From positions 109,131 to 173,130 of the forward strand of contig JAXMHR010000012.1 of assembly GCA_046346705.1 (NCBI GenBank): 64,000 bases of DNA. Reading direction: 5' to 3'. The stretch is from Verrucomicrobiota bacterium. Lineage in GTDB: Bacteria > Verrucomicrobiota > Verrucomicrobiia > Limisphaerales > UBA9464. The notes beneath the pieces were generated by a model. The model ran no database searches, had not been told where the DNA came from, and worked only from the letters and a program-made list of their open reading frames with translations. The translations under genes and the position numbers were made by a program. This document shows, one piece after another, positions 15,101-54,563 of the stretch. How positions within the stretch are numbered: the stretch's first letter is position 1; the number at the start of each line of letters is the position of its first letter.

Positions 15101-18100
15101 CGGGTTGGACCAATTTGGATTCCCCTCCTGGCGGTTGGAGTATCTTCAGGGCGGTGGTTTCGGCGATCCGGCGCCCTGGTATCGACAGAATGGTGGACTG
15201 TTGTTGTGGGATAGTGATTGGTATGGCGGTGGGGGGTATTGGGCGATGCAGGACAACCTCGGAGCGATCGTCTGGGGGCAGGGCTTGTCCCACAACCTTA
15301 CTGGCGGATCGTGGTTCGAATCCATCCCGGCGGTGTCGTGGATTTCGCCCGTCTCAGGGAATGTCGATGTCCTGGGTGAGTTGGAGCTGTTGTGGTCGAG
15401 TGGCGGAAACTCGGCGGAGACGTATCCAGTCGACATCGCGTTGGTCGTCCGGCGTCGTTCCGACGGTGAGTTTATCCCCATTCTTACCAACACGGTTGTC
15501 AAGCCGACCCCATCATTGAACACCCAGGAGTCGGTTCGACTCCCGGTTGGGATCACAAACCTCAGCCTTACGGTTGGGGACGAAGTCCGGGTCACACTGC
15601 GTGGTCGAGCGCCGTTCGCCCCGATGTCTCTGAATCTGAATGATCGCCTTGAGTTCGTTCTTTCCGCTCCCAAGAGGTCCGCGGTGGTGACGCTGGACGT
15701 TGGTGCGAATGCCGTCCCGGTCGCCCAGGCGCATACCCCGACTTCGGCCCTGCGCTTCGCGGGTAACAGGGACTATTTGATGTTAGGTGGACCTGCCGCC
15801 CAGTTCCCTCCCGGAGACTTTACAGTGGAATTCTGGATGCGCTCCACCAACGGCGTGAACCGTGGGACGGTATTTTCTTACGCCGTCCCGGGTCAGGACA
15901 ACGAATTCATGATCTATGACTGCCGGAGTATTAACCTCTTTCTGAGGGGCACGGGAGTGGAAACCGGAGTCGGAGCGGTGAGCGGTACTTGGCGGCACGT
16001 TGCGGTTTCCCGCTCCGTATCCGATGGGCTGACGCGGGTTTATTTGGACGGGGTTCTCGCTTCCGAGGTCATTCTGCGTGCCGGGGATGGGGTCCGGGAG
16101 GGGGGATATTGGATTGCCGGGCAGGACCAGGACAATCTTGCGGGAGGATTTGATGAACGGGAGGCTTTTGATGGAGAACTGGATGATCTCCGCGTCTGGG
16201 GCGTCGTCCGGTCATCCGGGGAAATTGCAGAAGGTCGTTTTGTTCGGTTGGCGGGCAATGAACCCGGATTGATTGCCTCATGGAACTTCGATCAGGTGAA
16301 CAACGGGGAATCACCGAATCAGGTGGCGGGCGGATTCCCCGCGGTGTTGGGAAGCGCCGATCAGGCGCCGTCCCCGGTTCCCGGCTTTGCGCCGTTTGAC
16401 GTGGCCTTTGCAACCGACGAGGAAACCCCGGTCGCAGTGACCCTGGCTGGGACTGACGCCGATGGAGATCCGCTAACTCGGATCGTGACGTCCCTTCCGG
16501 AACACGGGACCTTGTTTCAGACCTCGGATGGTTCGAATCCGACAACGCCCTTGGGTGGGAACAGGTCTCGCCGATTCGACGGGGTTAATGATATCATCAC
16601 CATTGCCGAAAACCCCTCCGGGGACTTGTCGGCTAGCCCTGCGTGGACTGTTTCTGCTTGGATCCGTCCGCGATCTGCGGGCAACACGTATCCGGTCATT
16701 TATTCCGAGGGTCACTGGGCTCTTTCCCTGGGATTGCAGCAGGGAACCGGCCGGCTGGATTCCTGGGTGAATAACAACAATCAGGCCGTCAGCGACCGGG
16801 CAGTCACCTTTGGCGAATGGCAGCACGTGGCATTAACCTCGGATGGTACGTCCCGGGTCTTCTATATCAATGGGCAGCCTGCCGGTTCCGGGAATGCAGC
16901 TGCGGTCGTCCCCAATGCCTCGGGCGCCGCCATTGGTGGCACCATCTCGGAGTTGACGGGCACGCGGAATCGCTTCGATGGAGACATTGACGATGTCGCG
17001 TTGTGGAACCGGGCGTTGACCCCTGCCGAATTGGCGGTTCTTGCTGTTGCCCCTTTGAAGGGCTCGGAGTCCGGCTTGATTGCGTGGTGGCCGCTGGACG
17101 AGATTTCCGGGAATGCGGTTGCGGATGCCACGGGGCGGGGTTCGGATGGCGTGGCTGGTGGAGGAAATCCTGCTTCGGACGGCGCCTGGCTTCCCGAATT
17201 CTCCCTGAATACCTCCCCGGCGTTTGCGGCTACCTTGCCGAGGGCAACGCATCCCGGAGGAAAACTCATCTATGTTCCGGATCAGGAATGGTCCGGGCTG
17301 GACGTGTTCGAGTATCGCGTCAATGACGGGAAGGTCGATTCCACGATCGCTTCGTTGTTTGTGCGGACACGCACCGTGAATGACCCCCCGACTGCGGTGG
17401 CGGATGTTGTGTCTGCGATTTCGGGTCTGCCCGAGTATATGTCCGGGATTTTGTCCAATGACTTCGATGTCGAGGGCGCCAAGGTGTCCCTCCTGGACTA
17501 TACGAATCCATCCCACGGTGCTCTTGCCAAGGGAGAGGGCGGCGTCCTGATCTACACTGCGGAGGTCGGATTTGCCGGTACGGATTCGTTTACCTACCGA
17601 ATTTCGGATGGTGTCGGGGCGAGCGTCCCCGCGACTGTGACGATTCATGTGGCGACGCCGGGGCAGTTCCGGTGGATCAACGTCGCGGGTGGAGATTGGA
17701 GCGTTGCCTCCAATTGGAGCGGCAACCGAGTTCCTTCGGCGGATGACGATGTTTTCATCACTGAGCCGGGGACCTATACCGTCAATCTGGATGTCGATGC
17801 CACCGTGCGACGACTTATCTTGGGTGGTGGTGGAACCGGCCAGCAGACTTTGTCCATTGGCAGCCGAACGCTAACCGTTCTCGGCGACAGTTTTGTTCAG
17901 GACCGGGGAGAGCTGGTGCAATCGGGCGGTCAAATCATCACTGACGGAGCCCACTGGAGCGTATCGGGGAAGCTTCGATGGACGGGGGGTACGATTGCGG
18001 GTTTGGGGACAACCGAGTTTTTGCCGGGCACCGATGTCCAGGTAGGGGCGCCGGGGATTGATGTTACGGCAACCACGGGTCGCCAGTTTCTCAATCGCGG

Positions 18101-27233: not shown

Positions 27234-27250
27234 TTGAGGGGGCCGCCTCA
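27234..27250. terminator. Candidate bidirectional hairpin between convergent genes (FGE-family + strand, GH32 - strand)
   Basis: TTGAGG-ggccg-CCTCAA (6-bp stem, 5-nt loop) lies in the 21-nt gap between the stop at 27226 and the minus-strand stop at 27248-27250. It has no clear U-tract, so support is weak. Confidence 0.3.
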
Positions 27251-29551
27251 AGGCGTAGGCCACGCCGATCCGAGCTCATACACATCGAGGGAACGGAATT
27301 CCGAGGTTCCGCCACGACTTTCGACCGACAGGGAACGATTTGCTGAGGCGGGTTGGAAGGGGACCGGAACGTAGGTGAGTCCATCGCTCGCGAAGATTTC
27401 GAGTCCGGTCCGATCACAATACACGGTCAGGCGCTGGCGACCGTTCCTGAGCGGCGCGGGTACCCTGAGTCCCTGTACCTCGAGTTCCTGAGTCCTGGCG
27501 TTGTACGTGATCTGGACGCCGCGAATGGAGAACCTTGTTTCGGCGCTCGCGCCGGGCTCTAAGTCCGCCCGAAGTTCCACCAATTCCCCGGAAACGCCAG
27601 CGAGGGGATTCGCGGTGCCGGGGTCCAGACGGATCGGGCCAAAAGATCTGGAGGTTCTGCGGAGCGACTCGAGTTCCCGCACCGGTGTCCAGGTGAGCCG
27701 CGGTCCCTCCGGGGTGGCAGTCAGACGTAGTTCAAGGGGGATGGTCATGGACTGGTTGAACGGCATGCCCTTGGTCTCGGTTTGAAACCATCCGATCTGG
27801 ATGCGCCGGCCGTCCGATGGAGGAAGATCGCTGAACGTTTGTGCGGCGTAGAATCCGCGACCGCGGTGGCCGGGAAGTTTGGGCGTTTCCGGATTGAATC
27901 GAATCCCATCAAACGTCCCGACCTGATACTCGCTGCTGGCGGCGGTCAGGACCCATTTTTTTGTTCCCGCGGAACCGTTCACGGGCAGTTCAAAGAAGTC
28001 CGGGCATTCATAGTATCCGTCGCTGCGGCTGAGAAAGGTCCAGTCCTTTAGGTTTGGGGATCCGAAGAAATGGATGGTGTGGACCTTGTTGGTTTCGACA
28101 TAGAGCGGCATGACCCATCGTTTTGACGGGACGTGCCAGAACACTTTGGGGTCCCGGTTGCCGCCTGTGACCTGGCGCAGGACGGGGTTTCCAGGATACT
28201 TGGTGAACCGGCGGCCATCGGTGCTGGACGCGATGCACTGAACCGTCGGATCTCCCGCCGCGGTATAGATGAGCACCAGGGGCGGATGATCCGCGGAACC
28301 CAGTCCGCTGGTATTCTGTGAATCCACAACGGCGCTGCCGCTGAACATGGGGCCCAGGGAATCGGGGGCGAGAACGTCCCCCAACTCCTCCCAGTGGACG
28401 AGGTCGCGACTGACGGCGTGGCCCCAGTGCATGTTTCCCCAGCCCCATCCATAGGGATTGTGTTGGAAGAAGAGGTGGTATTCGCCGTTGAAATAGACCA
28501 GCCCATTCGGGTCATTGTTCCAGCCCCTGCGCGGCGAGAAATGGAACTGGCCGCGCAGTGGTTCGCGGTAGAGTCCCCCGGCATCCGGATAGGCTTCGCT
28601 CGATTGGACACTGCTCAGTGCAACGGAGCCAGGCGGCAGCCGATCCACCTGCAGCGTGACGGTCTGATTCCTGAACGTGCCGACGTCCATCGGAGCCCAC
28701 CAGTCCGGGGTCCCGTCCGCCAACTCGATGTCGTTCCTTACGACCTGCGCACCGTTCGCGAGCAGGGTGACGACACGCTTCGGCGCTCCATTTCGGATGG
28801 GGAGGAGAAGGTAGCGATCCTTGACTGGAAACTCCCGAGAGGCATTGAGGGTGGGACCCGCGGGCTTTCGATCCGTCTGGAGGATCTGGTCCACGTTGAT
28901 ATGTCCCCAGCCTCCGGTCGCTTGATCCACAATCTGGAGTCGCGCCGTCTTTCCCTGGAGGCTGGAGACGTCCCAGAAGTCAGGGCTGAGGGTTTCGGTT
29001 CCGCCCGGCTGGGTATTGGATCCCGAGGCTTCCCTTACCATCAAGTCGTCCACCAGCAGACGGAGGGCGGTCTTGCCAGGAATTCGACCTCCACCGATCA
29101 GGAACGCGATATAGGGGCGCTCGATCCGGAACTCAGGCGAGGTTAATGTACCCGTGGATCCATCCCCATTCAGGAAGGAGTTGACGAGTCCGTTCCCCTG
29201 GAATCCGTCCACGGCCATTTGCCCGGGCAGCGCGCCGTGGGCAGGACCTTTGCCAAAGGCTTCGCCGGTGGCGGTCCAACCTCCGTAGTCGGAACCTTCA
29301 AAATCGGCAATGACCAGATCTTCGGCCGCCTGGAGATAAAAAGCCGAGGTCGCGAAGGCAATTGTCAGAAGAAGTGCGGCGAGCCGGCAACGCCGTTGGC
29401 GACGGCCTTGGGCCCGATGCTGAAATGGATTGGGAGTGGTCACTGGAGGTAAGGAGTCAGGAAGGCGACGGGGAGAGTTGTTCGAAGCCAAGGGCGTGTC
29501 GGGCAAAAAGGCGGAGAACTGATCCGGAACGGGTGGGTTCCCCGCGCGCAC
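27248..29551 (-). CDS. Glycoside hydrolase family 32 (fructan beta-fructosidase/levanase-like) with a ~300-aa N-terminal accessory domain
   Basis: GH32 catalytic motifs are present: WNNDPNG (WMNDPNG type), FSGSAVVD, RDPKVFWH, YECPDFFEL. The signal-like segment is RRCRLAALLLTIAFATSAFYLQA. The true start may be GTG 29443 rather than ATG 29551. Confidence 0.9.
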   Translation of the reverse strand: MRAGNPPVPDQFSAFLPDTPLASNNSPRRLPDSLPPVTTPNPFQHRAQGRRQRRCRLAALLLTIAFATSAFYLQAAEDLVIADFEGSDYGGWTATGEAFGKGPAHGALPGQMAVDGFQGNGLVNSFLNGDGSTGTLTSPEFRIERPYIAFLIGGGRIPGKTALRLLVDDLMVREASGSNTQPGGTETLSPDFWDVSSLQGKTARLQIVDQATGGWGHINVDQILQTDRKPAGPTLNASREFPVKDRYLLLPIRNGAPKRVVTLLANGAQVVRNDIELADGTPDWWAPMDVGTFRNQTVTLQVDRLPPGSVALSSVQSSEAYPDAGGLYREPLRGQFHFSPRRGWNNDPNGLVYFNGEYHLFFQHNPYGWGWGNMHWGHAVSRDLVHWEELGDVLAPDSLGPMFSGSAVVDSQNTSGLGSADHPPLVLIYTAAGDPTVQCIASSTDGRRFTKYPGNPVLRQVTGGNRDPKVFWHVPSKRWVMPLYVETNKVHTIHFFGSPNLKDWTFLSRSDGYYECPDFFELPVNGSAGTKKWVLTAASSEYQVGTFDGIRFNPETPKLPGHRGRGFYAAQTFSDLPPSDGRRIQIGWFQTETKGMPFNQSMTIPLELRLTATPEGPRLTWTPVRELESLRRTSRSFGPIRLDPGTANPLAGVSGELVELRADLEPGASAETRFSIRGVQITYNARTQELEVQGLRVPAPLRNGRQRLTVYCDRTGLEIFASDGLTYVPVPFQPASANRSLSVESRGGTSEFRSLDVYELGSAWPTP

Positions 29552-29563: not shown

Positions 29564-30604
29564 TCAGGGTGACGTCAGCCAGCACAACATCGTCCGGGTC
29601 ACCCGGTCGGGGGCATCCAGATGGACCCAGTGGGACGCGTTTGGAATCGTTACCAAAGTGAGGTCCTGATCCACCCAGTTCCAGGTGTCATTGAGGGCAT
29701 CCGCGAGAAGCGCGGTGTCTTTGAGGCCATGGAAAAGGAGCACCGGGCACCGGACTTTGGGGAAGGGTTGCGTTGGGAGTGTGTAAGGCTCCCTGGGATA
29801 GTTCGCCTTGTAAAAATTAAGCATTCCCTCGAAGGAGGACCGTTGAAAGGCGGCCACGTAATTGGAGCGCGATCCCGTGTCCGGCAGCCAGGACGCCATT
29901 TGTTCGGCCTTCAGGGTGGCCGCGGCTCCGGGTTCCTGGAAGTGGCGCGCATAGGCGCTGTTGCTTTGTTGGCGGGGGTTGGTCGCCAGTTCCCTGAGGA
30001 AACCCGCGGGGTGGGGCAGGTTTAGGACCACCAGCCGTTCCGTCTTTTCCGGGTGCCGCATGGCAAATTGCCAGGCCACCGCGCCGCCCCAGTCGTGTCC
30101 AATCACAATGGCCTTCTCACGACCGAAGTGCCGGATCACTGCGCCGACGTCTTCGACCAACAGATCCATGGAGTATTGGGAGACACCCGTCGGCTGGCTG
30201 CTGAGGTTGAACCCCCGTTGATCCATGGCCACGACCTGAAATTGGCGCGCGAGCGCCGGCATCTGATAACGCCAGGAGTACCAGTAGTCCGGGAACCCAT
30301 GGATCATCACCACGAGGGGACCGGAGCCCTTCGTGACGTAGTGGATCCTGACGTCACCGGAGTTTGCAAATCCGTGGGTTCCAAGTTCGGACTCTGCGGG
30401 AGCCGCATCAGGGACTTGTGCCTGGATTCCGAGCAAAACCGCGGATGCAAGTCCCAAACCGATGAGCGCCCGACGCAAAGGACCCGGATGGGCGGAAGCA
30501 GGAGTTCCCGTGCAGGAAGAGCATTGACGGAGGGAGGGCATGGCGACGTAGGGATATTTCGGGACCGGCCGTTGATCCTCCACGAAATGCCTCCGAAGGA
30601 CCAT
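29564..30604 (-). CDS. Alpha/beta hydrolase, epoxide-hydrolase-like subfamily
   Basis: Motifs: [16 protein letters not shown] (HGxP oxyanion motif plus WYSWR), [12 protein letters not shown] (nucleophile elbow with Asp), LVVLNLPHP, and C-terminal ..[11 protein letters not shown] (His). The start is ATG 30604 or ATG 30541 (MPSLRQ.., followed by [16 protein letters not shown]). Confidence 0.85.
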
Positions 30605-30640: not shown

Positions 30641-32833
30641 TCAATAAAGGCCCGCGTCCTTTAATTGCCGAATAACGACTCCGGTCCGAGCTGGAAAGTA
30701 TTGTTCGAGGAGTCGCTTGACCTCGGGCTGCCAGTGGTCGTCCACGGTGTACAATTCGTAAGGTCCCTCCCGGTACGGATGGACGTCCCGGCGGTAATCC
30801 CCCCAGCGAGCGGACTCAGCCACCATGGCTGGTTTGAGCATCCCGGCGAGTCGGGCATACCGTTGGCCCGTCGACTCCGGGGAGAGTGCGCCGCCGCTGG
30901 AAAGCTGCCGACGAGCGATTTCGCTGAACGCGGCCCGAAATCGTGGGTTCCTTCGAAGCGCCTGGAACAATCGGGTGGGGGACTGGTCGTCATCGGCGGC
31001 GAGGATGTTAGCATCCACCGCCTCCAGGCTGCGTTCGGAGTCCCACAGGTAAAATTCGTACTTCCCCTGCGGACGAATGCGCCGGCCGGCGTACCAATTG
31101 GAGGCAGCGTCCCAGTCCGAGGTTCCGCCGTAAATCTGGACCAGCATGTAACGGCAAAACCCGTCGATGTCGACCAGTCGGGAAATTTCGTCGTAACGCT
31201 GAGGGTCCTCCAGTCCGGAGTTGGCGAGTTCGAAAATCCGGTTCCAAGTTTTTTCAGTCCCGGAGAGAACCTTGCCTGCATTGCGGCTTTCGTAGTCCTC
31301 GGGCGATCCACCGAGGTGTTGGGCGAGAAAATCAGCGTCCGGGCGTTCGCAGAGATTGTAAATTCCCCAGTAGAGTCCATCGAGATAGAGATGCGCGAAG
31401 CGGCCCCGGGCGGTGAGGTGCCCCAGTTCCCGCAGGGATTCGCGCATAAACTCGTCCCGCAGCAATTCCCCCCGGCGACGCTCCTCGGAACTCCAATGGA
31501 GCCAGCTGTTGTTGCAGCCGGCACGCAGCACGAGGGATTTCAAGCGCGGAGGACCGGTCGGGCCAAACAGGGATTGATTGAGGTAGGCCGCGCCATACCG
31601 CTCGCGAAATTCCAGGCGGAAGGAATGCTTGGGGCTCTCCTCAGGGCGGCGGCTCCAGCCGCCTTGGATCCGGACTCCACACCGGGCGTGGAATTCATCG
31701 GTGCCGTCCGCAGGGATCCATTCAACGGAGGCGGAGCGTTCCCAGGCGGATCCGGTCTCCAGGGGATTTGAATAGATTCCCGTCTCTGGAGCAAAGAGAT
31801 CCTTCCGGTCGAGGACGAGGGACAGCGTTGGCAGCCTTTCCAGGCTCTCGTCGAGTCGACGTCGGTAACGGATGTCGCCGGCAATTTCCGGATCCATTTC
31901 GTAGTCGGCGACGACAGGCACGTCGTTCCGGCTGCCCCAAAACTTGGGGAAACCCTCGCCGGTCTGGTTCGGCACCTGAGCCAGAAACAGGTAGGTCTGG
32001 GTGTCTATGTCGGAGGGCTTGTAGTTCTCCCGGAAGGCTGCGGCGCGAAGGATGGTGGTGGTCCGGATCGGGATGGGCGCCGTGTAGCGGCTTCCGTGGT
32101 TGGGAAGGGGCCGGGAACCGTCCGTGGTGTAATAGATCTCCGCTTCCGGTGTGGCGGTGGAAATGGCCACCTCAAAGGGATGCGAATAGAAACCCCGGGT
32201 GTGACTGAATCGAGTGTCCGCGACCCGCCCAATCATCTCCTGGGCATTGGTGCGACCGGGAGTCGAGGCGATGAAGAAGGCATGACGACGCAGGCCGCGG
32301 GTCATCGCAGCGGCTCCACCCGCTCCAAATTGCGCGCTGCGAAGCCCGAAGGACACGTCGGCGTCCATGGCGGGATACTTGGGGAGATATTCGTGCGCCA
32401 CCGTCAATCCGTCGGGTTCAATCAGGGCGAGGTATTCTCCCTTGGGACTCAACCGGAAATTGGTGTGCAGATCGGTGGTGCGGTTGGTGCGGTTTTTTCC
32501 CGAAGCAAACACGATCGCGAAACCGCCGGGTTCCAGTTCCATGGGCGGAAACGTCCACTTCCGCGGAGCGCGAAAATCATCCGTCAAATGCCAGCCACCG
32601 AGCTTCTGGGGGTGGTCTCCCGGGTTGTGGATTTCAATCCATCCCGAAAACTCGCCATCGGAATCGGGAAGGGTCGAGTGATTCACGGCCATGATCTCCG
32701 AAATGAGCAGGGCCGGTTCGCGGATGGAGCGGTAAAGATCGCGGTTAAACAGCACCAGCAGCAGGCTCAGGGCCCCGGCTAGAATCAGGCCGAATCCGGC
32801 CGGCGTGAGTGTGCGGGAAGGGGATGGCTTCAT
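30641..32833 (-). CDS. Secreted CotH-family atypical kinase-fold protein with an N-terminal lamin-tail domain (LTD) and a chitobiase/beta-hexosaminidase-C-like Ig module
   Basis: Signal anchor: FGLILAGALSLLLVLF. LTD motifs: LLISEIMAVNHSTLPDSDGEFSGWIEIHN..GGWHLTDD..GGFAIVFASGK..FRLSPKGEYLALIEPDG. Ig module: IYYTTDGSRP..YTAPIPI..TTILRAAAF. CotH core: CGVRIQGGWSRR..PKHSFRLEFR, LVLRAGCNNSW, RGRFAHLYLDGLYWGIYNLCERPD. Confidence 0.85.
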   Translation of the reverse strand: MKPSPSRTLTPAGFGLILAGALSLLLVLFNRDLYRSIREPALLISEIMAVNHSTLPDSDGEFSGWIEIHNPGDHPQKLGGWHLTDDFRAPRKWTFPPMELEPGGFAIVFASGKNRTNRTTDLHTNFRLSPKGEYLALIEPDGLTVAHEYLPKYPAMDADVSFGLRSAQFGAGGAAAMTRGLRRHAFFIASTPGRTNAQEMIGRVADTRFSHTRGFYSHPFEVAISTATPEAEIYYTTDGSRPLPNHGSRYTAPIPIRTTTILRAAAFRENYKPSDIDTQTYLFLAQVPNQTGEGFPKFWGSRNDVPVVADYEMDPEIAGDIRYRRRLDESLERLPTLSLVLDRKDLFAPETGIYSNPLETGSAWERSASVEWIPADGTDEFHARCGVRIQGGWSRRPEESPKHSFRLEFRERYGAAYLNQSLFGPTGPPRLKSLVLRAGCNNSWLHWSSEERRRGELLRDEFMRESLRELGHLTARGRFAHLYLDGLYWGIYNLCERPDADFLAQHLGGSPEDYESRNAGKVLSGTEKTWNRIFELANSGLEDPQRYDEISRLVDIDGFCRYMLVQIYGGTSDWDAASNWYAGRRIRPQGKYEFYLWDSERSLEAVDANILAADDDQSPTRLFQALRRNPRFRAAFSEIARRQLSSGGALSPESTGQRYARLAGMLKPAMVAESARWGDYRRDVHPYREGPYELYTVDDHWQPEVKRLLEQYFPARTGVVIRQLKDAGLY

Positions 32834-32848
32834 GCGGCGCCGGCGATG

Positions 32849-33538
32849 CTACCCCTCGACTCCGTCCATGCCGGTCACGTACTTGGACATCCGGGTGACG
32901 CGGAACGGAAAATAGTTGGTGATGCGATCATCGATGTCCGCGATGTCTCCCGAGTACTTCAGTTCCATCACCGTGCTGTCGGAAAGTTCCATCCGGCTGA
33001 GGAACTGGTTGTCATGGCGATGGACCCGGTAGAACTCCAGATGATCATCGATTGTGATTCGGTAATGGCCGTCCGCCGACAGGAAATATTTCCGGTGATA
33101 GCGGTTGATCAGGGCGGGTTCGAGTCCGTCGAGATGATATCGAACCGCGTCGGGAAGTTTGGATGCCTCTAGGGCCTTGCGAAGGATGTTCACTCCGAAG
33201 CCCCGGCCGATGGAAATGGGGCTGAGGGGATGGGACGCCTTGGTTCCCACCATGCCGCGCTTGATCTTGAATTCCAGCACCGGTCGTGCGGCGGTGCCGA
33301 GCAGGGGTCCGTACCACCGGATCCGCATTTTCGTCCGGTCGGCCATGCCGTCCACGTTCTCGAAGTAGGAGCCGAGTCCCGGGTCGTCGAGGTAGATGTT
33401 GTTGATGGAACGCGGGGCGTAGACCTCGTAAAACAGGGCGGGACATCGCCGCACCCAGTGTTCCACCTCCCAGGTTGGGACCTCGCGGATATGGTACTTC
33501 CGCTCAAACCGGTATTCGCTGTCCCCGCCTTCGCTCAT
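32849..33538 (-). CDS. VTC domain (polyphosphate-polymerase-type CYTH-like tunnel domain) protein
   Basis: Motifs: YRFERKYHI, INNIYLDD, KMRIRWYG, VLEFKIKRG, NRYHRKYF, YRITIDDHLEFYRV, VMELKY..MSKYV. The start is ATG 33538 (MSEGGDSEYRF), 16 nt after the stop of the DUF4956 gene. Confidence 0.8.
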   Translation of the reverse strand: MSEGGDSEYRFERKYHIREVPTWEVEHWVRRCPALFYEVYAPRSINNIYLDDPGLGSYFENVDGMADRTKMRIRWYGPLLGTAARPVLEFKIKRGMVGTKASHPLSPISIGRGFGVNILRKALEASKLPDAVRYHLDGLEPALINRYHRKYFLSADGHYRITIDDHLEFYRVHRHDNQFLSRMELSDSTVMELKYSGDIADIDDRITNYFPFRVTRMSKYVTGMDGVEG

Positions 33539-33554
33539 GCCGGACTCCGGGATC

Positions 33555-34241
33555 TCAGTTCCCGATCCCGCGTTCGTCAACAAACCGGACCCGGGTGTCT
33601 CCCAGACTCGTGCGGAAATCCTGGAGGCACGATTCGACCCGGGTGACATCCGCGAATGCGACCTGGAACGAGGCCTCCAGATGATCGTCCGTCTCATCAA
33701 ACCGGCGCAGTTTCACCTCGCGGGCATGCTTCTGAAGCCCGGCCAACAATTCCGGGAGTCCCGTGCCGGCCTTGCGGGGACTGGATAACGTGACGTAGAG
33801 ATTGGGGCCGGGTTCCCGCTGCTGGACAACGTGGCTGAGCGCGATAATGGCGATCAAGACCGCGAAGGCGATCAGGGTGATCACCGTCTGCTGCGCTCCG
33901 AGACCCAGGCCGATGGCGATGCAGATGAAAAGATAGCTCAGTTCCTCAGGCTCCTTGATCGCCGCGCGAAACCGGATGATCGACAGGGCTCCAACCAGTC
34001 CCAGGGACAGGGCCAGGGAGGATTTCACGATGGTGATGATCAGCATCGTGGTCATGGTCAGGACGACAAAGTTTCGACCAAAGATGTCCCGGTTGGAGAG
34101 CGCGCGTCCAAACCGCGCATAGGCGCGGCCGAGCAAGTGGGCCAGCAGCGCCGCGAGGAGGAAATTGATGAGGAACAGTCCGTAGTGGATCTCGGCGCTT
34201 TGTGCGGAGAAAAACTGGAGCAGGGATTCGTTCTTGTTCAT
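33555..34241 (-). CDS. DUF4956 domain-containing multi-pass membrane protein
   Basis: Starts MNKNESLLQFFS. Hydrophobic helices (LFLINFLLAALLAHLL, VVLTMTTMLIITIV, LSYLFICIAIGLGLG, ITLIAFAVLIAIIAL) surround the conserved GALSIIRFRAAIKEPEE motif. The tail is soluble. Confidence 0.8.
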   Translation of the reverse strand: MNKNESLLQFFSAQSAEIHYGLFLINFLLAALLAHLLGRAYARFGRALSNRDIFGRNFVVLTMTTMLIITIVKSSLALSLGLVGALSIIRFRAAIKEPEELSYLFICIAIGLGLGAQQTVITLIAFAVLIAIIALSHVVQQREPGPNLYVTLSSPRKAGTGLPELLAGLQKHAREVKLRRFDETDDHLEASFQVAFADVTRVESCLQDFRTSLGDTRVRFVDERGIGN

Positions 34242-34357
34242 GCGGGGAACAGTGCGCCGGGGAACGCTCGGGCGCCGCGGACGTCCTGAAAGGATACTGG
34301 AAGTGACGAAAAGGTTACAGGGAACTTTGGGAAGCGGATTGGCGCGACGGGAAGGCC

Positions 34358-36943
34358 TCAATTCCCGGGCGGGAGCGCCGAGGCTGGGGTTCCGGGCGGC
34401 CCCGTTTGCGAGAGGGCGCTCCAGTCGCCGTCCTTCAGGGCCCGGGCCGTGACTTTGCCTCCCGGTGGAACGAACACCGGATCGCCGGACTTCCGGGCCA
34501 TTGGGGAGGGAGTTCCGCCGACCCGCCGCGGATCGGTTCCATCCGTGGTGTAATAGATGTCTCCCGCCGGCGCGGAGATTCGGATCCGAACGGGTTGGGA
34601 ACCGTCTCCCGATACGGGGCTGAATTCCGGGGCGGCGATGTCGGGAAGAAGTCCCTGCGAATAAAGCTGGGCGAGGACAATGTCACCCCGGTGCGGGATA
34701 TAGTCGTCCAGGATCCGTGTGATTTCCGGACGCCAATCCTCCTCTCGATTCAAGGGGCTGGTTTTGGGTTTTCCGTCGGGTCCCAATCGCGGGGGAGCCC
34801 CCATGGGGATGGTTTGCTTTACGTCGCCCCAGCGGGCGGACTCGGCGAGTACCGCTGATTCGATCTGGCGGGCCCGGCGTTGAAACCGCTCGCGGAGAGA
34901 CTGGGCATTCAAGGCGCCTCCCGAGGAGAAGTGGCGCTGGACCCGGTCGGCCACGCGGAGCCGGAACTCGGGATTCTCGACGCACTGTTGCCAAAGCCAC
35001 TGGGGACTGCTGGTCTCGAGCCGGTCTCCAGTCTTGAAGGGGCCTGTGCGGTCCTCCTCCACCTTGAGCATGGTGTGTTCCGCATCCCAGACGAAGAACT
35101 GGAAGCCCCGGTCACCCTTCCGCTTTCGGAGCGCGTGGAAGTTGTTCGGGTTCCGGTTGTCCCCAAACGCGGATATCGGGGCGTCCAGATTGCCGCCCCA
35201 GAAAATGACCAGCATGTAGTCGATAAGATTGTCCACGTCGAGCAGGGCTTCCTGACCGGGGTTGACGGAGCCGTCCGGATTTCGCCCCTGGAGCGCGAAG
35301 TAGTTCGTGACATTTCCAAGGCGGTTGGAGGCTCCCAAATACAGCCGGGTCCATGCCTCCAGGTTTCCGTCGGTGGCCATGACCGTGTAGGTGCTTTCCC
35401 GGGTGGTGAATCCGGAGTCCACCTTGACGGCGTCGAAATCCGATTTCCGGCCGCCGAGGTAGGTGGCGCCGAAGGAGGCTTCCGGACGCTCACAGGTATC
35501 GTAAAGGCCCCAGTATTGACCATTGATGTAGAGGTGGCAGAAGTCGCCGCGGGCCGCCGGCTGTCCCATGGCCCGTTGCAGGTCGCGGTTGAACTGGTCC
35601 CGGAGAAAGGTCGCCCGCGGATCCCCGCAGAGGCTCCACGAATAGTTATGCGAAGTGCGAAGATCGAGGGCCTCAAACGACTGCGCGCCCTCTTTACCGA
35701 ACAACGGATACTTCAGAGGGCCGTCCCCATACTCCTCCCGGAAGAAAAGGCGGAATGCGTGTTTCGGATTCACCGGCATTCGGCTGAAGCCTCCGCGGAT
35801 CCGGACGCCACAATGTATCTGGAAGCCCGGCGCACCGTGGGGATCCAGGAACTCAATCGAACAGGGACGCTCGGACTCGCGTCCCTGCTCGCCCGCATGG
35901 GAATAGACCCCGCGGACGGGGCCAAACAAGTCATCCATGTCGGCGACGAGGGACACGCTGGGGATGGCCTTCAATCCGGCGATCAGCTCCTCCCGGAATT
36001 TCGGGTCCCTGGTGATGCGCGGATCCATTCCGTAATCGACCTGGTTTTTATCCCAAAGATAGGGAAACCCAATGGGAGGGAGGCCGTCGGAAGACTGTTG
36101 GATCACGTCGTGAACAAAGAGAAAGGTGTGCGTCTTGACCTTGGATGGGCGGTATCCGGGTTTGAACGCCGCCACCCGGAGGACGGTGGTCCCGTCGATA
36201 GGGATGGGTGCCGCGTACGTCATCCCGCGTTCAGGCGTGGGAAGGGAACCATTGGTGGTATAGCGGATCGTCGCACCGTCGGTGCGCGTTGTCAGGACGA
36301 GACTAAACGGCTCCTCATAGAACCCCCGCTTGCTCCCGAGTTTGACTTCCGCCACCTCACCCAGAAGTCCACCGGAATTGGGGGCACCCGGCGTGGGGCG
36401 GTCGAGGATCCGGGCGTAATCCGCCGGATTCAGTCCCGGATGCCATTCTGACGAGACGCCAAAACTGACGTCCCGGTCGAGACTGGGGTACTTCGGGTCG
36501 TAGTCGTGGACCACCGTTTTCCCGTTCCGGGCCAGAAGGGCGAGGTATTCGCCCTTCGATTCGAGCTTGAAGGCCGCGTGGAGCGGTTTGTCGCCATCGC
36601 CGCGGTCCTTTCCGGAAGCGAAGACGACGCGGAATCCTCCCGGCGAAATCGTGCCCGAGGGGAGGATCCAGCGGGACGGCTTCTTCCTTCCCACGGAGAG
36701 GATCAGACCCCTCAGTTCGACCGGTGTGTCGCCATAGTTGTACAGTTCGATCCAGTCTGGAGTGTCGCCGTCCTCGTCCTTGAGTGTGGAGCCATTGGAC
36801 GGCATGACCTCGCTGATCAGCAGTTTCGGGGGTGTCGTGTCCTGTCCGTGACCCGGCGAAAGCAGTCCCATGGCGAGGTGGATTGCCAGGACGAGTGCCC
36901 AGACCGGCCGCAAGCGGGATAGGAGTGGAGACGGGGGAGTCAT
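34358..36943 (-). CDS. Second secreted LTD-CotH family protein (paralog of 30641..32833) with an extra C-terminal Ig-like module
   Basis: Signal peptide: MTPPSPLLSRLRPVWALVLAIHLAMGLL. LTD motifs: LLISEVMPSNGSTLKDEDGDTPDWIELYN..GGFRVVFASGK..FKLESKGEYLALLARNG. CotH core: CGVRIRGGFSR..PKHAFRLFFR, RGDFCHLYINGQYWGLYDTCERPE. C-terminal module: IYYTTDGTDP. The ATG at 36943 overlaps the upstream stop (ATGA). Confidence 0.85.
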   Translation of the reverse strand: MTPPSPLLSRLRPVWALVLAIHLAMGLLSPGHGQDTTPPKLLISEVMPSNGSTLKDEDGDTPDWIELYNYGDTPVELRGLILSVGRKKPSRWILPSGTISPGGFRVVFASGKDRGDGDKPLHAAFKLESKGEYLALLARNGKTVVHDYDPKYPSLDRDVSFGVSSEWHPGLNPADYARILDRPTPGAPNSGGLLGEVAEVKLGSKRGFYEEPFSLVLTTRTDGATIRYTTNGSLPTPERGMTYAAPIPIDGTTVLRVAAFKPGYRPSKVKTHTFLFVHDVIQQSSDGLPPIGFPYLWDKNQVDYGMDPRITRDPKFREELIAGLKAIPSVSLVADMDDLFGPVRGVYSHAGEQGRESERPCSIEFLDPHGAPGFQIHCGVRIRGGFSRMPVNPKHAFRLFFREEYGDGPLKYPLFGKEGAQSFEALDLRTSHNYSWSLCGDPRATFLRDQFNRDLQRAMGQPAARGDFCHLYINGQYWGLYDTCERPEASFGATYLGGRKSDFDAVKVDSGFTTRESTYTVMATDGNLEAWTRLYLGASNRLGNVTNYFALQGRNPDGSVNPGQEALLDVDNLIDYMLVIFWGGNLDAPISAFGDNRNPNNFHALRKRKGDRGFQFFVWDAEHTMLKVEEDRTGPFKTGDRLETSSPQWLWQQCVENPEFRLRVADRVQRHFSSGGALNAQSLRERFQRRARQIESAVLAESARWGDVKQTIPMGAPPRLGPDGKPKTSPLNREEDWRPEITRILDDYIPHRGDIVLAQLYSQGLLPDIAAPEFSPVSGDGSQPVRIRISAPAGDIYYTTDGTDPRRVGGTPSPMARKSGDPVFVPPGGKVTARALKDGDWSALSQTGPPGTPASALPPGN

Positions 36944-37602
36944 TGGGACTTCTGCCGCGAGTTGCGGATTTGGAGCAGTTCGTCGGCGTCGGCCAGTCCG
37001 TTGCCATTCGTATCGAAATGTAGGAGTGCCTTTTGTTCCTCCAGATACCCAGGAGTCGGAGAAGCCGGATCGTTGGCCATGCGGCCGGCGAAGTAAGCGG
37101 GGATGCCGGTGATCTTTCCTGCGGCGACATCCTTCATCATGACCTTGGTCTCCTCCTTGCTCAGTTTGCCGTCCTTGTCTGCGTCGTACGTTTCCCGAAG
37201 AATCCTGGTTTCCGCCTCCCACGCCACACGCCATTCATCGCCGGCCATCTCCCCGTCCTTGTAGCGATCATACTTGGCGAGGAAGTCCGCGGGGATCTGG
37301 AATTCCGCACGCTTGGACAACCGCTCTGCCTTCAGGTCCAGTCGCATGCTTTCCCGCTCCGAAGGATCCAGTCGCCCGTCGCCATTCTTGTCGTACTTCA
37401 CGAGCAGATCGGCCCGCACCTTCTTTGGGTCCGGAGGTGGATCATCCGCCAGGATGCTGGACGCCAAGGCGAGGAACAGGAATGCCTGGAGCCCGGTGGC
37501 CGGGTTCCTCCTTGCCCAAGGAAGGGAGTGGGAATGGGGATGGAAAATCATGGCGTGGCACGCGTGAGTCTGAAGGAAACTCAACAGGGATCCCAGAGAC
37601 AA
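36940..37602 (-). CDS. Secreted EF-hand calcium-binding protein
   Basis: Three canonical 12-residue EF loops are present: DKNGDGRLDPSE, DADKDGKLSKEE, DTNGNGLADADE. A degenerate loop DRYKDGEMAGDE is also present. The signal-like segment is GLQAFLFLALASSILA. The start is ATG 37602 or ATG 37551. Confidence 0.8.
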   Translation of the reverse strand: MSLGSLLSFLQTHACHAMIFHPHSHSLPWARRNPATGLQAFLFLALASSILADDPPPDPKKVRADLLVKYDKNGDGRLDPSERESMRLDLKAERLSKRAEFQIPADFLAKYDRYKDGEMAGDEWRVAWEAETRILRETYDADKDGKLSKEETKVMMKDVAAGKITGIPAYFAGRMANDPASPTPGYLEEQKALLHFDTNGNGLADADELLQIRNSRQKSQ

Positions 37603-44822: not shown

Positions 44823-46004
44823 GTGACATCGGATGCTCAGCTGCTGCGGGAATTCGCGGCTACGGGATCGGAGGCAGCCTTCACTGAACTGGTGGGGCGG
44901 CACGGTCCGGTGGTTTTCGCGGCCGCCCTGCGGCAGACGGGCAATCCCCATCTTGCCGAGGAGGTGACCCAGGCGGTCTTTCTCCTCCTCGCCCGAAAGG
45001 CGGCTTCGCTGTCCGGCGAGGCGGTCCTGATCGGATGGCTGATGAAGGCCACCCGGTTTGCCGCCCGGGACCTGCTTCGGAGCGAGCGCCGACGGCTGGA
45101 ACGGGAAACGACCGCCTATCACATGAATGAATCCCATTCCTCTTCGATTCCTGACGCCGATGGCGGACGCCTGTGGGACCGCATTGCGCCCGTTCTGGAC
45201 GGCTGTCTTGCCCGCCTGCGGGAGGCGGACCGCAACGCGATCCTTCTGCGCTTCTTTCAAAACAGGCCGCTGGCGGAAGTGGGCAGTGCGCTGGGGATCG
45301 CGGAGGAAGCCGCCCGAAAACGCGTGACCCGGGCGCTCGAACGTCTTCGTGAGGAACTCCGGCGGGACGGTGCCGTGGCCTCCCTGGCGGTCCTTCCAGA
45401 CTTGTTGTCCCGCCAGGCGGTCCCTGTTGGCCCGGTGGAATTGGTGGGCACGACGGTGTCAACGGTCCTGGGGACCAATGGAGGAGCACCTGTCCGGGCG
45501 ACGATTTTGTCCAAGGTCCTCGCCCGGGACCTCGCATGGTCGGGACTCCGGATCTGGTTTGCCACCGCGGCGACCGCGGTCGCGCTCGTAGGCGGGGCGC
45601 TCTGGGTCCGTGAGACCGTCGGTTCCCGGGATCTGGCGCCGAAGGTGACGGCGGAAGGGGATTACCGGGTCGCCGGATTTCCGGATCCGTTGGTGGTGCA
45701 CCGCTTCATCCGCAACCTCCAACGGGAGTTGCGGGCGGGCGAGCGTGAGACCGTGGCTTCCTGGGTTCGGTACCCCCTGCGGGTGCAGGGCGCGGCTTTG
45801 GAGTCCCGGGTGGAAAGTCCCGCAGCCGTCCTCGCCATGTTCGAGCGGGTGTTCACAGAATCCGTGGCGGGGGAGATTCTCAAATGTCCCGCCCAGCGGC
45901 TGCATTGTACGGCCGAGGGGGTCATGATTGGAGGAGGCTCGGTCTGGATTGCGCCCGAGCCCAAAACGGGTGAGCCTCGGATCACGCTGGTGAATCTCCC
46001 ATGA
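44823..46004 (+). CDS. ECF-type sigma-70 family factor fused to a transmembrane helix and a ~130-aa C-terminal domain
   Basis: Region 2 reads FTELVGRHGPVVFAAALRQTGNPHLAEEVTQAVFLLLARK. Region 4 reads LREADRNAILLRFFQNRPLAEVGSALGIAEEAARKRVTRALERLR. A TM helix (LRIWFATAATAVALVGGALWV) and a further soluble domain follow in the same ORF. Confidence 0.85.
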   Translation: MTSDAQLLREFAATGSEAAFTELVGRHGPVVFAAALRQTGNPHLAEEVTQAVFLLLARKAASLSGEAVLIGWLMKATRFAARDLLRSERRRLERETTAYHMNESHSSSIPDADGGRLWDRIAPVLDGCLARLREADRNAILLRFFQNRPLAEVGSALGIAEEAARKRVTRALERLREELRRDGAVASLAVLPDLLSRQAVPVGPVELVGTTVSTVLGTNGGAPVRATILSKVLARDLAWSGLRIWFATAATAVALVGGALWVRETVGSRDLAPKVTAEGDYRVAGFPDPLVVHRFIRNLQRELRAGERETVASWVRYPLRVQGAALESRVESPAAVLAMFERVFTESVAGEILKCPAQRLHCTAEGVMIGGGSVWIAPEPKTGEPRITLVNLP

Positions 46005-49800: not shown

Positions 49801-51400
49801 TCTCGCGCCGGGAACCCATCGATTGGACGTTCAGGATCTGAAGGACCCTGCAATCCAATCCCCCCCGGTGACTGTGGTGGCCGTGGCCTCGGGCGCGCGG
49901 ATCACCTGGGTCCAGCCGGTGGAAGGTGCGGAGTTCGCGTTCGGAAAGCCCATCGAACTGGAGGTTCAGACGGTGGATCCCGCGGGACTCCTGTTCCTCG
50001 TCGAATACCTCGCGGACGGCATCAAGATCGGGGAGTCCACCTACGACTGCATCACCTGTCGTCCCGCCCCCGGCGCAACCCTCGTGCAACGGTTCACCTG
50101 GGTCGGGGCTCCCGTGGGGCTTCATACGTTGGTGGCGCGGTCGCAGAAGGCGGATGGCACCTGGGTCGAATCCGAACCCCGGGTGATCTCGGTTCGGGAG
50201 ATCGGGGAAACACCGTCGTTTGTCCGGCGGGTGCTCCCGACCACGTATGCCGCCGACAGCCCTTTCACCGTGACCTTGATTGTGTCGCCGGCGGATTCGG
50301 TGGCTGCGTATGTGGTGGAGGAGGTGCCTCCGTTTGCCCGGCCGACCTTTGGGATTCCCGAAAACCTGCCGCCGTTTTGGCGGGTGGTGGCGATCAGCGA
50401 TGGCGGGGTGTTCGATTCGGTCACGGGCAGGATCAAGTATGGTCCGTTCCTGGATTCGGCACCCAGGACGTTGTCGTATCAGGTGCTCCCGGACCGCGTT
50501 GTGGACGTCGCCCCGTTTGAGGGCGTTGGAGTTGCCGATGGGGTCCGTTCTTCCATCACGGGCGACCGTGAGCTCCGCGGTGCCGTGCAGCATCCGGCGG
50601 ACCGGGATCCGGCCGACAATGCGTTGGGGGCCGGAGAACTCACCCGATACGCCGCCGCCTGGAAGCGGGAAGAGCTCTGGCCCGGCGGTCCTAATCCCAT
50701 CCCCCTCGATTACGTGACCCGGGCCGCCGCCTTGTGGAAGGGGGGCGAACGCTACTCGTATGATCCGACCGCGGGTGCTCCTCCCTTCTGCTGGGTGTAC
50801 GGGCCGTTCCCGGTTCCGGGGGCGGCATCCGCAGCCTTGAGTCCAACGTTCGCCGGCATGGCGGTGCGCACCGTGGAGACCCGGGCCGACGGGACCCGCC
50901 ATGTCACGGTCCGCTTGACGCCGGCGCCGGGCATCCGGGCGTTTGCCCTGGAGGAATCCCTTGCGGTCACCGGCGCGGTCCTGGGCATGACGCCCGAAGG
51001 GGCGCTGGCGCCCTCCGGACGCGTGATTCGTTGGGGGCCGTTCTATGGTCCGGACCGCGTGGAGGTTTCCTATGACGTCGCGGCCGGGATTCCCGGGTTC
51101 GTGGTCTCGGGGCGGGCGTCGTTCGACGGACAATCCGTCGCCGTACATGAACGTACCGAGTCGGGGGATGGGGAAAGCAGCCCCCGGATCGGCATGGATG
51201 TCCTACACGACGGGGCTCATCAATTCTCGATGGACCTCAGCGGGATGCCGCCAGGGAAGGGACTGGTCCTCGAGATGAGCACGGACCTTCAGCACTGGAC
51301 TCTCGTGGACACCTTCACCCAAGGAGCCGGTGCGGCATTCGCACGGGATGTCCTCGTTCTGGGGGACGCCGTACGCTTCTACCGGGCCGTGTCCCGCTGA
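46850..51400 (+). CDS. Large secreted Ig-like/Calx-beta repeat protein (1,516 aa) with a terminal beta-sandwich-like module
   Basis: Signal peptide: [22 protein letters not shown]. Six Ig-like units are marked by (V/I)EF(L/F)A(N/D)G..(V/I)G(T/V/E)S. Calx-beta-like units are present ([31 protein letters not shown]; [27 protein letters not shown]). The tail reads ..[12 protein letters not shown]...[10 protein letters not shown]. Confidence 0.85.
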
Positions 51401-51456
51401 ATTGGAATCACCGCCTGGGCTCGACGCCGGGCCTGGGGAACCGGCAGTCTTGGCGG

Positions 51457-52473: not shown

Positions 52474-52699
52474 GGCGGTTCGATAAGATGGGAGGGATGG
52501 CATGTTGCCGTCCGAAAACAGATCCGCGGTTGGGCGCGAGGATGGAATTGCGTGTGAATCCCCGTACGAAGGGCGTGACTTGAATGGGGCTCGCAGCATG
52601 CAAGCCCTCCCGTGGGAAGGAGGGGAGGGGCGGCGTCCCGCCGTCCGTAAACAATTCCGGGACCTCGCGGCTAAGAGCAAAGCGGAGCGGGGGCAACTC

Positions 52700-53325: not shown

Positions 53326-53769
53326 CCGACCCCGGCCGGACCTGGGTGGGATCCTGCCCACCAGCGACGACCGACCTTCCCCATCCGCTTCGGCATTCAT
53401 CCCCGAACTCTATCCCGACCTTGGTCTCCACCGGCCATCCGAAACGCCTCCCGAGAAATGAGGAGCGGAGGCGGATTCGCGACGCGCAGCGTCGAGTTGG
53501 GCGGAACTTCTTCGATCTCAAATCGGTGAAAACCGTTCTCTTGCAGCGAATGGGAGATCCTGTTGGACGGCGGGGTTCCGAGTTGGACCGAAGAAGGCGC
53601 TTCCCGTCAGACCCGCCCACCCCTCCGGACTCAAGTTAGGTGGATGATGCGTCGCTCAAGTGCCCAATAATCCCCTCTTTCGCATAGACATAGCGAGCGT
53701 ATTAGGCTTCGCTCTACTGAGTTAGGCGGATCCTGCTTCCGTCCAATAATAGTTCGCCAGAAGGATGCC

Positions 53770-54561: not shown

Positions 54562-54563
54562 CT

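Follow-up and report, generated by a model that had tools for sequence, protein, structure and literature searches.

The window analyzed here is a stretch of 64,000 nucleotides (nt) from a Verrucomicrobiota bacterium (GTDB lineage Verrucomicrobiia, Limisphaerales, UBA9464; GenBank assembly GCA_046346705.1, contig JAXMHR010000012.1, positions 109,131 to 173,130 of the forward strand). Five genes lie close together on its minus strand and encode, in the order of transcription, an EF-hand protein, a first CotH protein (CotH-A), a membrane protein of the DUF4956 family, a VTC-domain protein and a second CotH protein (CotH-B). The initial annotation, made from the sequence alone, joined all five in one system of extracytoplasmic phosphorylation and polyphosphate (polyP). 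On the evidence of genome comparison, the string is two independent CotH modules, both predicted to act outside the cytoplasm, which are neighbors in this Verrucomicrobial lineage. The first is the DUF4956-VTC-CotH trio, which recurs in bacteria and archaea, and the second is the pair of EF-hand protein and CotH-A. The trio may form a membrane-spanning device for polyphosphate or phosphoryl transfer, with the EF-hand/CotH-A module standing apart from it; this model as a whole is put forward tentatively.

Recurrence of the trio and the separate EF-hand/CotH-A pair

The distribution of the genes was followed by searching six-frame open reading frames (ORFs) with purpose-built hidden Markov models. 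A pattern scan, in which each species was represented by one genome, gave at least 579 VTC relatives, and the neighborhoods were read at the best 80 loci (here numbered with the prefix L). These bacterial loci belong to Verrucomicrobiota, Planctomycetota, Anaerolineales and other Chloroflexota, Bacteroidota, Acidimicrobiia and KSB1, and the archaeal loci to Methanosarcina, Methanogenium, Woesearchaeota and Nanoarchaeota (DPANN). A locus was regarded as complete when at least 4.5 kb were available on both sides of the VTC gene, which left 43 loci from different species. DUF4956 is encoded within 5 kb of VTC and on the same strand in 42 of these 43, and CotH in 36. The genes of the trio are always co-oriented, and their order is DUF4956-VTC-CotH (DVC), DCV or CDV; CotH follows VTC in the loci of the DVC type (L004-L018, L029-L044) and in L087/88. 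The gap from DUF4956 to VTC has a median of 11 nt and does not exceed 20 nt in 43 of the 51 loci in which DUF4956 stands directly before VTC. Judged by gene order, such recurrence across phyla makes the three-gene arrangement one that is far beyond chance. Co-conservation, which the initial annotation had expected of the whole string, holds for VTC, DUF4956 and one CotH and does not extend to the EF-hand and CotH-A genes. Neither the loss of key residues nor the lack of co-conservation, both named beforehand as signs against the proposal, was found for the three-gene core. The authors of a study on Streptococcus intermedius could not find synteny of the trio outside pel loci (PMC12345266), a remark contradicted by the genomes scanned here, in which the trio is widespread without pel genes.

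The nearest relative found (L087/L088, VTC 89% identical) carries the genes in the order pantoate transferase (minus strand), PQQ-propeller, DUF4956, VTC, LTD-CotH (730 aa), alpha/beta hydrolase, GH32 and FGE-sulfatase (minus strand). This is the order of the window without the EF-hand and CotH-A genes. Since the two genes are missing there and are found elsewhere without VTC and DUF4956, they are read from the gene order as an independent pair, inserted between the PQQ-propeller gene and DUF4956. The largest gap of the string, 116 nt, coincides exactly with the boundary between the two modules. In sequence, this spacer in front of DUF4956 closely resembles the one between the PQQ-propeller gene and DUF4956 in L087, and it holds a TGTAACC-N15-AGTAT motif that recurs before the DUF4956 genes of L004, L005 and L088. 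Such an element is probably the own promoter of the DUF4956-VTC-CotH unit and would, by resemblance, be of the type read by extracytoplasmic function (ECF) sigma factors. It is kept among the closest relatives only, which makes it weak evidence; a generic scan for sigma-70 promoters and terminators remained at the background level, with nothing on the minus strand at the spacer.

The EF-hand protein has three significant stretches of the Pfam families EF-hand_1/5/6 (about 1e-11) and four readable canonical 12-residue loops of the form Dx[DN]xDG...E (DKNGDGRLDPSE, DRYKDGEMAGDE, DADKDGKLSKEE and DTNGNGLADADE). Homology to this protein was confirmed at L084/85 and L086, only adjoining an A-type CotH, and in L093 and L094, too, precomputed Pfam matches show an A-type CotH gene immediately preceded by one for an EF-hand protein. 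In total, this arrangement is present in four of the five other independent contexts examined. No EF-hand homologue is encoded at any of the 80 VTC loci, and VTC and DUF4956 are absent from all EF-hand/A-type CotH contexts examined outside the window. An example of such separation is the pair in L086, whose 10.5-Mb genome also has a DUF4956-VTC-CotH trio about 2 Mb away (L001/L018). Because the two genes are conserved as a unit of their own, apart from the trio, comparative support is lacking for the role of the EF-hand protein in Ca2+ sensing within the VTC system, as it was first proposed. Splitting off the pair averts a misleading five-gene model and defines a second, Verrucomicrobia-specific pair of a Ca2+-binding protein and a kinase.

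Several further observations concern the pair. The EF-hand protein (36943-37551, minus strand) resembles XopAW, a family of type III-secreted calcium-binding effectors, at 36.6 bits against the NCBIfam cut-off of 120, a match that most likely reflects only the common EF-hand loops. In two other Verrucomicrobia, genes for an ECF sigma factor and a FecR anti-sigma factor lie directly upstream of EF-hand/CotH-A (L084:5058-6947 and L093:1524-3352). A Limisphaerales locus (L086:440-5452) encodes a protein of 1670 aa with the architecture LTD - CHB_HEX - CotH - CHB_HEX - LTD, 2 kb upstream of the pair, which points to a heavy expansion of CotH in Limisphaerales.

Six complete loci, all from a Verrucomicrobial subclade, contain DUF4956 and VTC with no CotH match. 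In L014, L016, L019, L020 and L023-L028, the position after DUF4956-VTC is taken by a protein of about 200-230 aa in place of the full LTD-CotH, and in the subclade this is typically an anchored protein of roughly 220 aa with a lamin-tail domain (LTD) only, which corresponds to the N-terminal part of CotH-B without the kinase. In the product of L020:10683-11345, a membrane anchor at the N-terminus is followed by the LTD and no other domain. Since the subclade loses the kinase yet keeps the anchored LTD, this suggests that the DUF4956-VTC complex, or its product, is contacted by the LTD itself.

The only other recurrent neighbor of the trio is a glycosyltransferase family (GT1/GT4), present in 12 loci. 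The composition of some single loci is also of note. Two loci of Saprospiraceae (L058:1308-20130 and L076) encode DUF4956, VTC and four CotH paralogs in a row, and the trio of L058 is embedded among genes for Wzz/GNVR, Wzy, a Wzx-type flippase and GT1. The DUF4956/VTC(/CotH) set occurs twice at one locus in L046 (a single amplified genome of Nanoarchaeota, 6643-16597), in opposite orientation, and in L054, in tandem. The window also encodes, at 44823-46004, a sigma-70 r2/r4 protein that is greatly extended at its C-terminus; other members of its ORF cluster lie no more than 10 kb from the trio in L001, L013, L015 and L018. Locus L040 (CAZLOH010000004.1), labeled as an uncultured Bifidobacterium sp., was not used as evidence for Actinobacteria. 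Its CotH is of the Verrucomicrobial type with anchor and LTD and nearly matches those of L035 and L044, and the taxonomic label of the bin looks wrong.

Residues, folds and topology of the encoded proteins

The domain assignments of all five proteins in the initial annotation agree with Pfam. The VTC protein matches PF09359 with 100.2 bits against a gathering cut-off of 23 (E 1.7e-28), and an alignment of 30 VTC sequences has 36 invariant columns. Its profile finds Vtc4 structures in the PDB at E 7e-7, with an alignment that can be read residue by residue: R10 of the window protein corresponds to R196 of Vtc4, K14 to K200, R72/R74 to R264/R266, E89/K91 to E279/K281, K100 to K294, Y147/R149 to Y359/R361, R160 to R373, E192/K194 to E426/K428 and S218/K219 to S457/K458. 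This set of tunnel and catalytic residues is wholly kept and is invariant in 30 homologues. The tunnel Lys and Arg residues, whose absence would have spoken against the first proposal, are all in place, together with the equivalent of the catalytic Lys458. The AlphaFold2 (AF2) model of the protein has a pLDDT of 87.6 and a pTM of 0.85. In a Foldseek search with this model, ranks 1-13 are all tunnel domains of Vtc4, Vtc2 and Vtc3 (E about 1e-10, TM-score 0.58-0.70), and other triphosphate-tunnel (TTM) proteins, such as ygiF, SaTTM and CyaB-type cyclases, follow lower at E 3e-7 or weaker. The protein (229 aa) consists of the VTC domain alone; an SPX domain and C-terminal DUF202 helices are both missing. 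As first described, it lacks a signal peptide; it has no hydrophobic segment of any kind, and hydropathy analysis reveals no transmembrane-like segment in any of 86 homologues. The protein is therefore predicted from its sequence to be a soluble, cytoplasmic tunnel protein of the Vtc4 type.

The DUF4956 protein scores 58.2-58.7 bits with PF16316 (gathering cut-off 30.6, E 1e-15). The hydropathy scan supports the multi-pass topology of the initial annotation and marks four hydrophobic segments, the last of which is a stretch of about 35 residues; with this stretch manually split in two, the protein reads as one of five transmembrane (TM) helices. A core of the form LSNR..F.RNF...IVKSSLALSLGLVGALSIxRFRAAIKEPEEL is near-invariant in 78 homologues from Verrucomicrobia to archaea. 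The C-terminal 90 residues form a beta-alpha-beta-beta-alpha-beta pattern in a low-confidence AF2 model and read as a cytoplasmic, ACT-like domain. Three distant DUF4956 members have MgtC (PF02308) matches at E 0.07-0.5 (11-14 bits, cut-off 31.4), which cover the same TM region. Such matches weakly point to a resemblance to MgtC, not to membership in its family; DUF4956 has been described as 'MgtC + ACT' (PMC12345266).

In Anaerolineales and one member of Acidimicrobiia (L045, L052, L053, L067, L069, L073, L077), the DUF4956 protein is longer, with about 460-500 aa. These long forms, e.g., L052:8528-9958, start with a signal peptide and an N-terminal extracytoplasmic domain of about 170 aa, for which no Pfam match was found; by eye, its motifs FTETFDE..L.GWE and GGGIGF.V.GE look jelly-roll- or lectin-like. 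The natural versions with a signal peptide and an ectodomain, together with positive-inside reasoning, place the N-terminus of DUF4956 outside and the C-terminus inside.

Both CotH paralogs of the window lie well above the gathering cut-off of PF08757 (99.2 and 95.6 bits, cut-off 23.8). CotH-A is composed of an LTD, two CHB_HEX_C_1 domains and CotH (Pfam CotH 5e-27), and CotH-B of an LTD, CHB_HEX_C_1/Fn3_assoc and CotH (Pfam CotH 4e-28), where CHB_HEX_C_1/Fn3_assoc stands for the Ig-like modules. The initial annotation gave signal peptides to both CotH proteins and to the EF-hand protein. By hydropathy analysis, this stands for the EF-hand protein, which has an ordinary signal peptide ending ...SSILA|DD, and for CotH-A, which has an ordinary, cleavable-looking one ending ...GHG|QD. 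It probably does not stand for CotH-B, in which an N-terminal hydrophobic segment with a Kyte-Doolittle value of 2.25 is followed by NRDLYR and has the look of a membrane anchor that stays uncleaved. Among full-length trio-linked CotH proteins, 67 of 70 begin in a similar way, with basic residues and then a strongly hydrophobic anchor.

The comparison with Bacillus CotH depends on family profiles. The single sequence of CotH-B had no match in the PDB, and the profile of the CotH family reached B. cereus CotH at E 0.005. In the profile alignment to 5JD9, the W-D motif falls on the equivalent of D251 and the DWD region on the equivalent of D228, two residues that are essential for the activity of B. 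subtilis CotH (PMC7821199). The N/T-x-D and W-D motifs of the window proteins would correspond to D228 and D251, with the equivalence of the catalytic-loop Asp set by motif alignment only. The CotH-A family is invariant in 121 of 121 sequences at GGN-x-D587, N600/N601 and W619-D620-A-E-H, with an insertion of eight residues after N-x-D in CotH-A. CotH-B contains the Lys of PKHSFR, TSD-W-D...SNW and LWDSE, and all 108 motif-matched members of the B-type family have D-W-D. Both families have in common an invariant N/T-x-D, a downstream Asn, W-D-x-E and the Lys of PKHxFR, so that the kinase motifs, which the initial annotation had proposed to compare with those of B. subtilis CotH, are kept in both paralogs. 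The possibility that CotH-A is a pseudokinase, raised by an HMMER alignment in which the catalytic Asp appears as Arg, was rejected, as the family alignments show the invariant N-x-D (D587). An hmmalign of all locus CotH ORFs with a regular-expression motif scan was uninformative for divergent subfamilies. A role in the spore coat would not be expected for the window proteins because the host is not a spore former and the proteins are exported.

Known counterparts, the proposed mechanism and its alternatives

The initial annotation knew of no experimental characterization of the neighborhood. The gene set has in fact been described before: in streptococci, clostridia and bifidobacteria, pelDEADAFG is directly adjoined by accessory genes, namely cotH, a 'poly-phosphate polymerase' gene, DUF4956 and DUF4832 (Whitfield et al. 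2020, PMC7112168). The NELoc-2 locus of Clostridium perfringens contains VTC and CotH genes, with genes annotated as 'tubulin/FtsZ' beside those for VTC (PMC2879425). The set has also been knocked out in S. intermedius. Deletion of DUF4956 (SIR_1592) or CotH (SIR_1594) alters Pel levels and lowers Pel-dependent aggregation in artificial sputum medium by more than 50% (PMC12345266). The window trio and this accessory set consist of the same three Pfam families, contiguous and co-oriented, and have the same predicted layout: CotH outside, a multi-pass DUF4956 with a cytoplasmic ACT-like C-domain, and VTC in the cytoplasm. In contrast, the window host is a Gram-negative member of the Verrucomicrobiota, whereas the published set is Gram-positive. 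The window CotH has an N-terminal anchor, an LTD and CHB_HEX Ig-like modules, whereas that of the Pel set has a C-terminal FN3, and only the window has a second CotH with an EF-hand partner next door. Neither pelDEADAFG nor DUF4832 turned up in the gene calls for the 10 kb to each side, nor in a scan of the window's larger ORFs. The window feature is a Pel-independent, LTD-anchored Verrucomicrobial variant of the published trio, located beside an unrelated EF-hand/CotH pair.

Three other systems are comparable in part. The yeast VTC complex (PDB 3G3Q, 7YTJ, 8I6V), in which the catalytic tunnel of Vtc4 is joined with the membrane channel of Vtc1/2/3, has the same tunnel fold as the window VTC and the same residues for the substrate, the polyP path and catalysis. 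In both, a cytoplasmic catalytic domain is genetically coupled to a membrane protein. The window protein differs in the absence of SPX and DUF202 helices, in its MgtC-like partner and in E12, which replaces T198 of Vtc4. Bacillus CotH, a Ser kinase of the spore coat (PDB 5JD9/5JDA), has in common with the window proteins the Asp of N-x-D, the downstream Asn, the metal-binding Asp of W-D and the N-lobe Lys; the similarity is very remote, and the window proteins are exported or anchored with extra LTD and Ig-like modules. Like DUF4956, members of the MgtC/SapB family have about five TM helices and, after these, a small ACT-like domain in the cytoplasm, whereas the near-invariant motif RFRAAIKEPEE is DUF4956's own.

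The predicted topology, with a cytoplasmic VTC, a multi-pass DUF4956 and an outward-facing CotH, fits a Vtc-like synthase and translocase that feeds an extracytoplasmic kinase, and the synthesis and export of polyP and its use by CotH are a plausible, though purely inferred, function. In this scenario, VTC would dock on DUF4956, its proposed membrane partner or conduit, and polymerize phosphate from ATP. The polyP chain, or its phosphoanhydride energy, would then pass through or along DUF4956 to the outside, where it would act as a phosphoryl donor in a compartment free of ATP. With this donor, the anchored CotH-B would phosphorylate a target outside the cytoplasm, most probably a polysaccharide or protein that forms part of the surface or matrix. 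A link to surface polymers is supported by the trio's place beside Gram-positive pel operons (PMC7112168) and within the Wzx/Wzy/Wzz and GT1 locus of L058, by the glycosyltransferase family as its most frequent other neighbor, and by the lower Pel-dependent aggregation of the DUF4956 and CotH deletion mutants (PMC12345266). In the second module, which would work independently of VTC and DUF4956, the EF-hand protein may be the Ca2+-binding partner or substrate of CotH-A, its kinase. That DUF4956-VTC does in prokaryotes what the VTC synthase/translocase does in eukaryotes, with an MgtC-like, unrelated protein as its membrane partner, and extrudes polyP to energize an anchored CotH kinase is a doubtful but real possibility.

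Several points weigh against this scenario. To our knowledge, neither prokaryotic VTC and DUF4956 proteins nor trio-linked CotH proteins have an established biochemical activity, and we know of no enzyme with a protein-kinase fold that uses polyP as a donor. The literature search found no biochemical study of a bacterial VTC-domain protein and no paper joining CotH with Vtc4/TTM chemistry. DUF4956 has no detectable likeness to the Vtc1/DUF202 channel helices, and its profile gave only noise against the PDB (cholera-toxin B at E > 0.1), with no solved relative; the AF2 model from the single sequence is of low confidence (pLDDT 66, pTM 0.33). A fusion of DUF4956 and VTC was present neither among the 120 VTC homologues listed nor in the 80 loci. 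The occurrence of an LTD-only protein in several Verrucomicrobial species implies that the kinase is dispensable for the role of DUF4956-VTC. No change in aggregation was reported after deletion of the VTC gene of S. intermedius (SIR_1593; PMC12345266), and this silent knockout speaks against an obligatory supply line from VTC to CotH under those conditions.

According to the strongest alternative, the trio serves the modification and regulation of exopolysaccharide or the cell surface. VTC and DUF4956 would be cytoplasmic sensors or regulators of phosphate or energy, like MgtC, with the donor coming from elsewhere, and CotH would be a kinase of glycans or of matrix proteins or a regulator of the polymer machinery, with no polyP exporter. 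The amount of Pel and the aggregation respond to the loss of DUF4956 and CotH and not to that of VTC (PMC12345266), and the trio lies within pel loci (PMC7112168) and, in L058, within a Wzx/Wzy/Wzz/GT locus. Also in agreement are the glycosyltransferases as the commonest extra neighbor, the weak MgtC matches of DUF4956 and the N-terminal ectodomain of some of its members. However, most loci, the window included, have no polysaccharide genes within 10 kb, and the strict coupling of DUF4956 to VTC (42 of 43 loci, median gap 11 nt) together with the full Vtc4 catalytic set argues for an enzymatic VTC. This explanation, which offers no ATP source for the outward-facing kinase, is considered unlikely.

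A different chemistry of VTC is proposed by the second alternative, in which this triphosphate-tunnel protein works as a hydrolase or cyclase on tripolyphosphate (PPPi), nucleoside triphosphates or polyP, and the trio degrades or senses extracellular or cytoplasmic polyphosphate. Among the prokaryotic TTM/CYTH proteins that have been characterized, hydrolases and cyclases are in the majority (PMC4641920, PMC8233210). The invariant E12 of the window protein is a hydrolase residue, the third position of ExExK, which is Thr in Vtc4, and because of this residue the protein may have hydrolase or other chemistry, a further point against the polymerase scenario. Other features speak against the alternative. 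In place of the basic residues that guide the polyP chain in Vtc4, TTM hydrolases have an acidic patch (PMC4641920). Of the three mappable positions of this patch, two are basic and Vtc4-like, namely R10, at the position of the first ExExK Glu, and K194, at that of the ExE partner; the fourth is not mappable. K219, the equivalent of Lys458, is invariant, although this residue is dispensable in a TTM phosphatase (PMC4641920), and the nearest structural neighbors are Vtc tunnel domains. Taken together, a hydrolase or cyclase appears distinctly improbable.

The single Ca2+-regulated phosphorylation and polyphosphate system made of all five genes, as it was first envisaged, agrees with the close, single-strand arrangement of the genes with its overlap and short gaps. 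The extracytoplasmic parts are all compatible with one compartment, and several metagenome contigs of this lineage keep the arrangement unchanged. It is nevertheless largely refuted by the comparison of loci. The nearest relative has neither CotH-A nor the EF-hand gene, none of the 80 VTC loci has an EF-hand homologue, the pair exists elsewhere without VTC and DUF4956, even in the L086 genome, which has the trio too, and the 116-nt gap with its conserved upstream element falls at the module boundary, so that such a system is highly improbable. A merely incidental adjacency of VTC, DUF4956 and CotH, with no functional link, is hardly credible and counts as refuted by gene order, as their same-strand adjacency recurs in distant bacterial and archaeal phyla with the order shuffled.

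Bacterial polyP synthesis is attributed to PPK1 and PPK2. The polyP-export scenario bears on how prokaryotes power phosphorylation outside the cytoplasmic membrane and on whether a prokaryotic polyP polymerase or exporter of the VTC type exists. If it is true, DUF4956-VTC and CotH would be a dedicated bacterial and archaeal route to phosphorylate surface polymers or proteins where no ATP is available. As the trio also exists apart from Pel biosynthesis, the mild streptococcal knockout phenotypes gain a wider relevance. It is widespread, including methanogens and DPANN archaea, and its layout across the membrane makes the idea of polyP export directly testable.

Gene models and other features of the window

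On re-reading the sequence, the positions and junctions of the five genes in the initial annotation proved correct. The stop codon of the EF-hand gene and the start codon of CotH-A have the ATGA at 36940-36943 in common. A gap of 116 nt separates the CotH-A stop codon (34358-34360) from the ATG of DUF4956 (34241), followed by gaps of 16 nt between the DUF4956 stop and the ATG of VTC (33538) and of 15 nt between the VTC stop and the ATG of CotH-B (32833). The start of the EF-hand gene was corrected and is most likely 37551 (M18), not 37602. Public gene calls on contigs with an identical VTC protein give the same models for these and the two following genes (203/861/228/229/730/346/767 aa), and the best homologues of the window proteins are found in Verrucomicrobiota metagenome-assembled genomes.

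Features of the window around the two CotH modules
Feature	Coordinates	Strand	Basis
EF-hand protein, secreted, four-loop Ca2+-binding, 203 aa	36940..37551	-	Pfam EF-hand_1/5/6/7, signal peptide
CotH-A, secreted LTD + Ig-like + CotH + C-terminal CHB_HEX_C_1, 861 aa	34358..36943	-	Pfam, signal peptide
TGTAACC-N15-AGTAT element, candidate promoter	34294..34319	-	spacer conservation
DUF4956 membrane protein, 228 aa	33555..34241	-	Pfam, hydropathy
VTC, predicted stand-alone cytoplasmic Vtc4-like triphosphate-tunnel protein, 229 aa	32849..33538	-	Pfam, profile, AF2
CotH-B, putatively membrane-anchored LTD + Ig-like + CotH, 730 aa	30641..32833	-	Pfam, N-terminal anchor
alpha/beta-hydrolase, secreted, haloalkane-dehalogenase/epoxide-hydrolase-like	29564..30604	-	Pfam Abhydrolase_1 4.5e-35
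GH32 beta-fructosidase-like glycoside hydrolase	27248..29551	-	Pfam Glyco_hydro_32N 2e-67

The initial annotation let the string continue into the hydrolase and GH32 genes. The gaps of 36 and 12 nt across which these genes are reached, measured on the longest ORFs, stand, and the synteny is limited to the nearest relative found, L087/88. The ORF clustering of the 80 VTC loci gave no recurrence of either gene. By this comparison, the hydrolase and GH32 genes are neighbors outside the conserved module. Every NCBIfam match of the alpha/beta-hydrolase is below its own cut-off.

Elsewhere in the window, a giant ORF of 5475 aa (3141-19568, plus strand) contains CarboxypepD_reg, Big_5 and SdrD_B-type repeats and is preceded by an RHS-repeat protein of 1032 aa (32-3130, plus strand). 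An ORF of 673 aa (51379-53400, minus strand) has a phage-integrase SAM-like N-terminal domain. Beside it, at 54000-58000, the G+C content is 0.57-0.59 as against about 0.61-0.65, the GC skew is reversed, and two large ORFs have no Pfam match; together, this region and the integrase-like ORF may represent a mobile element.

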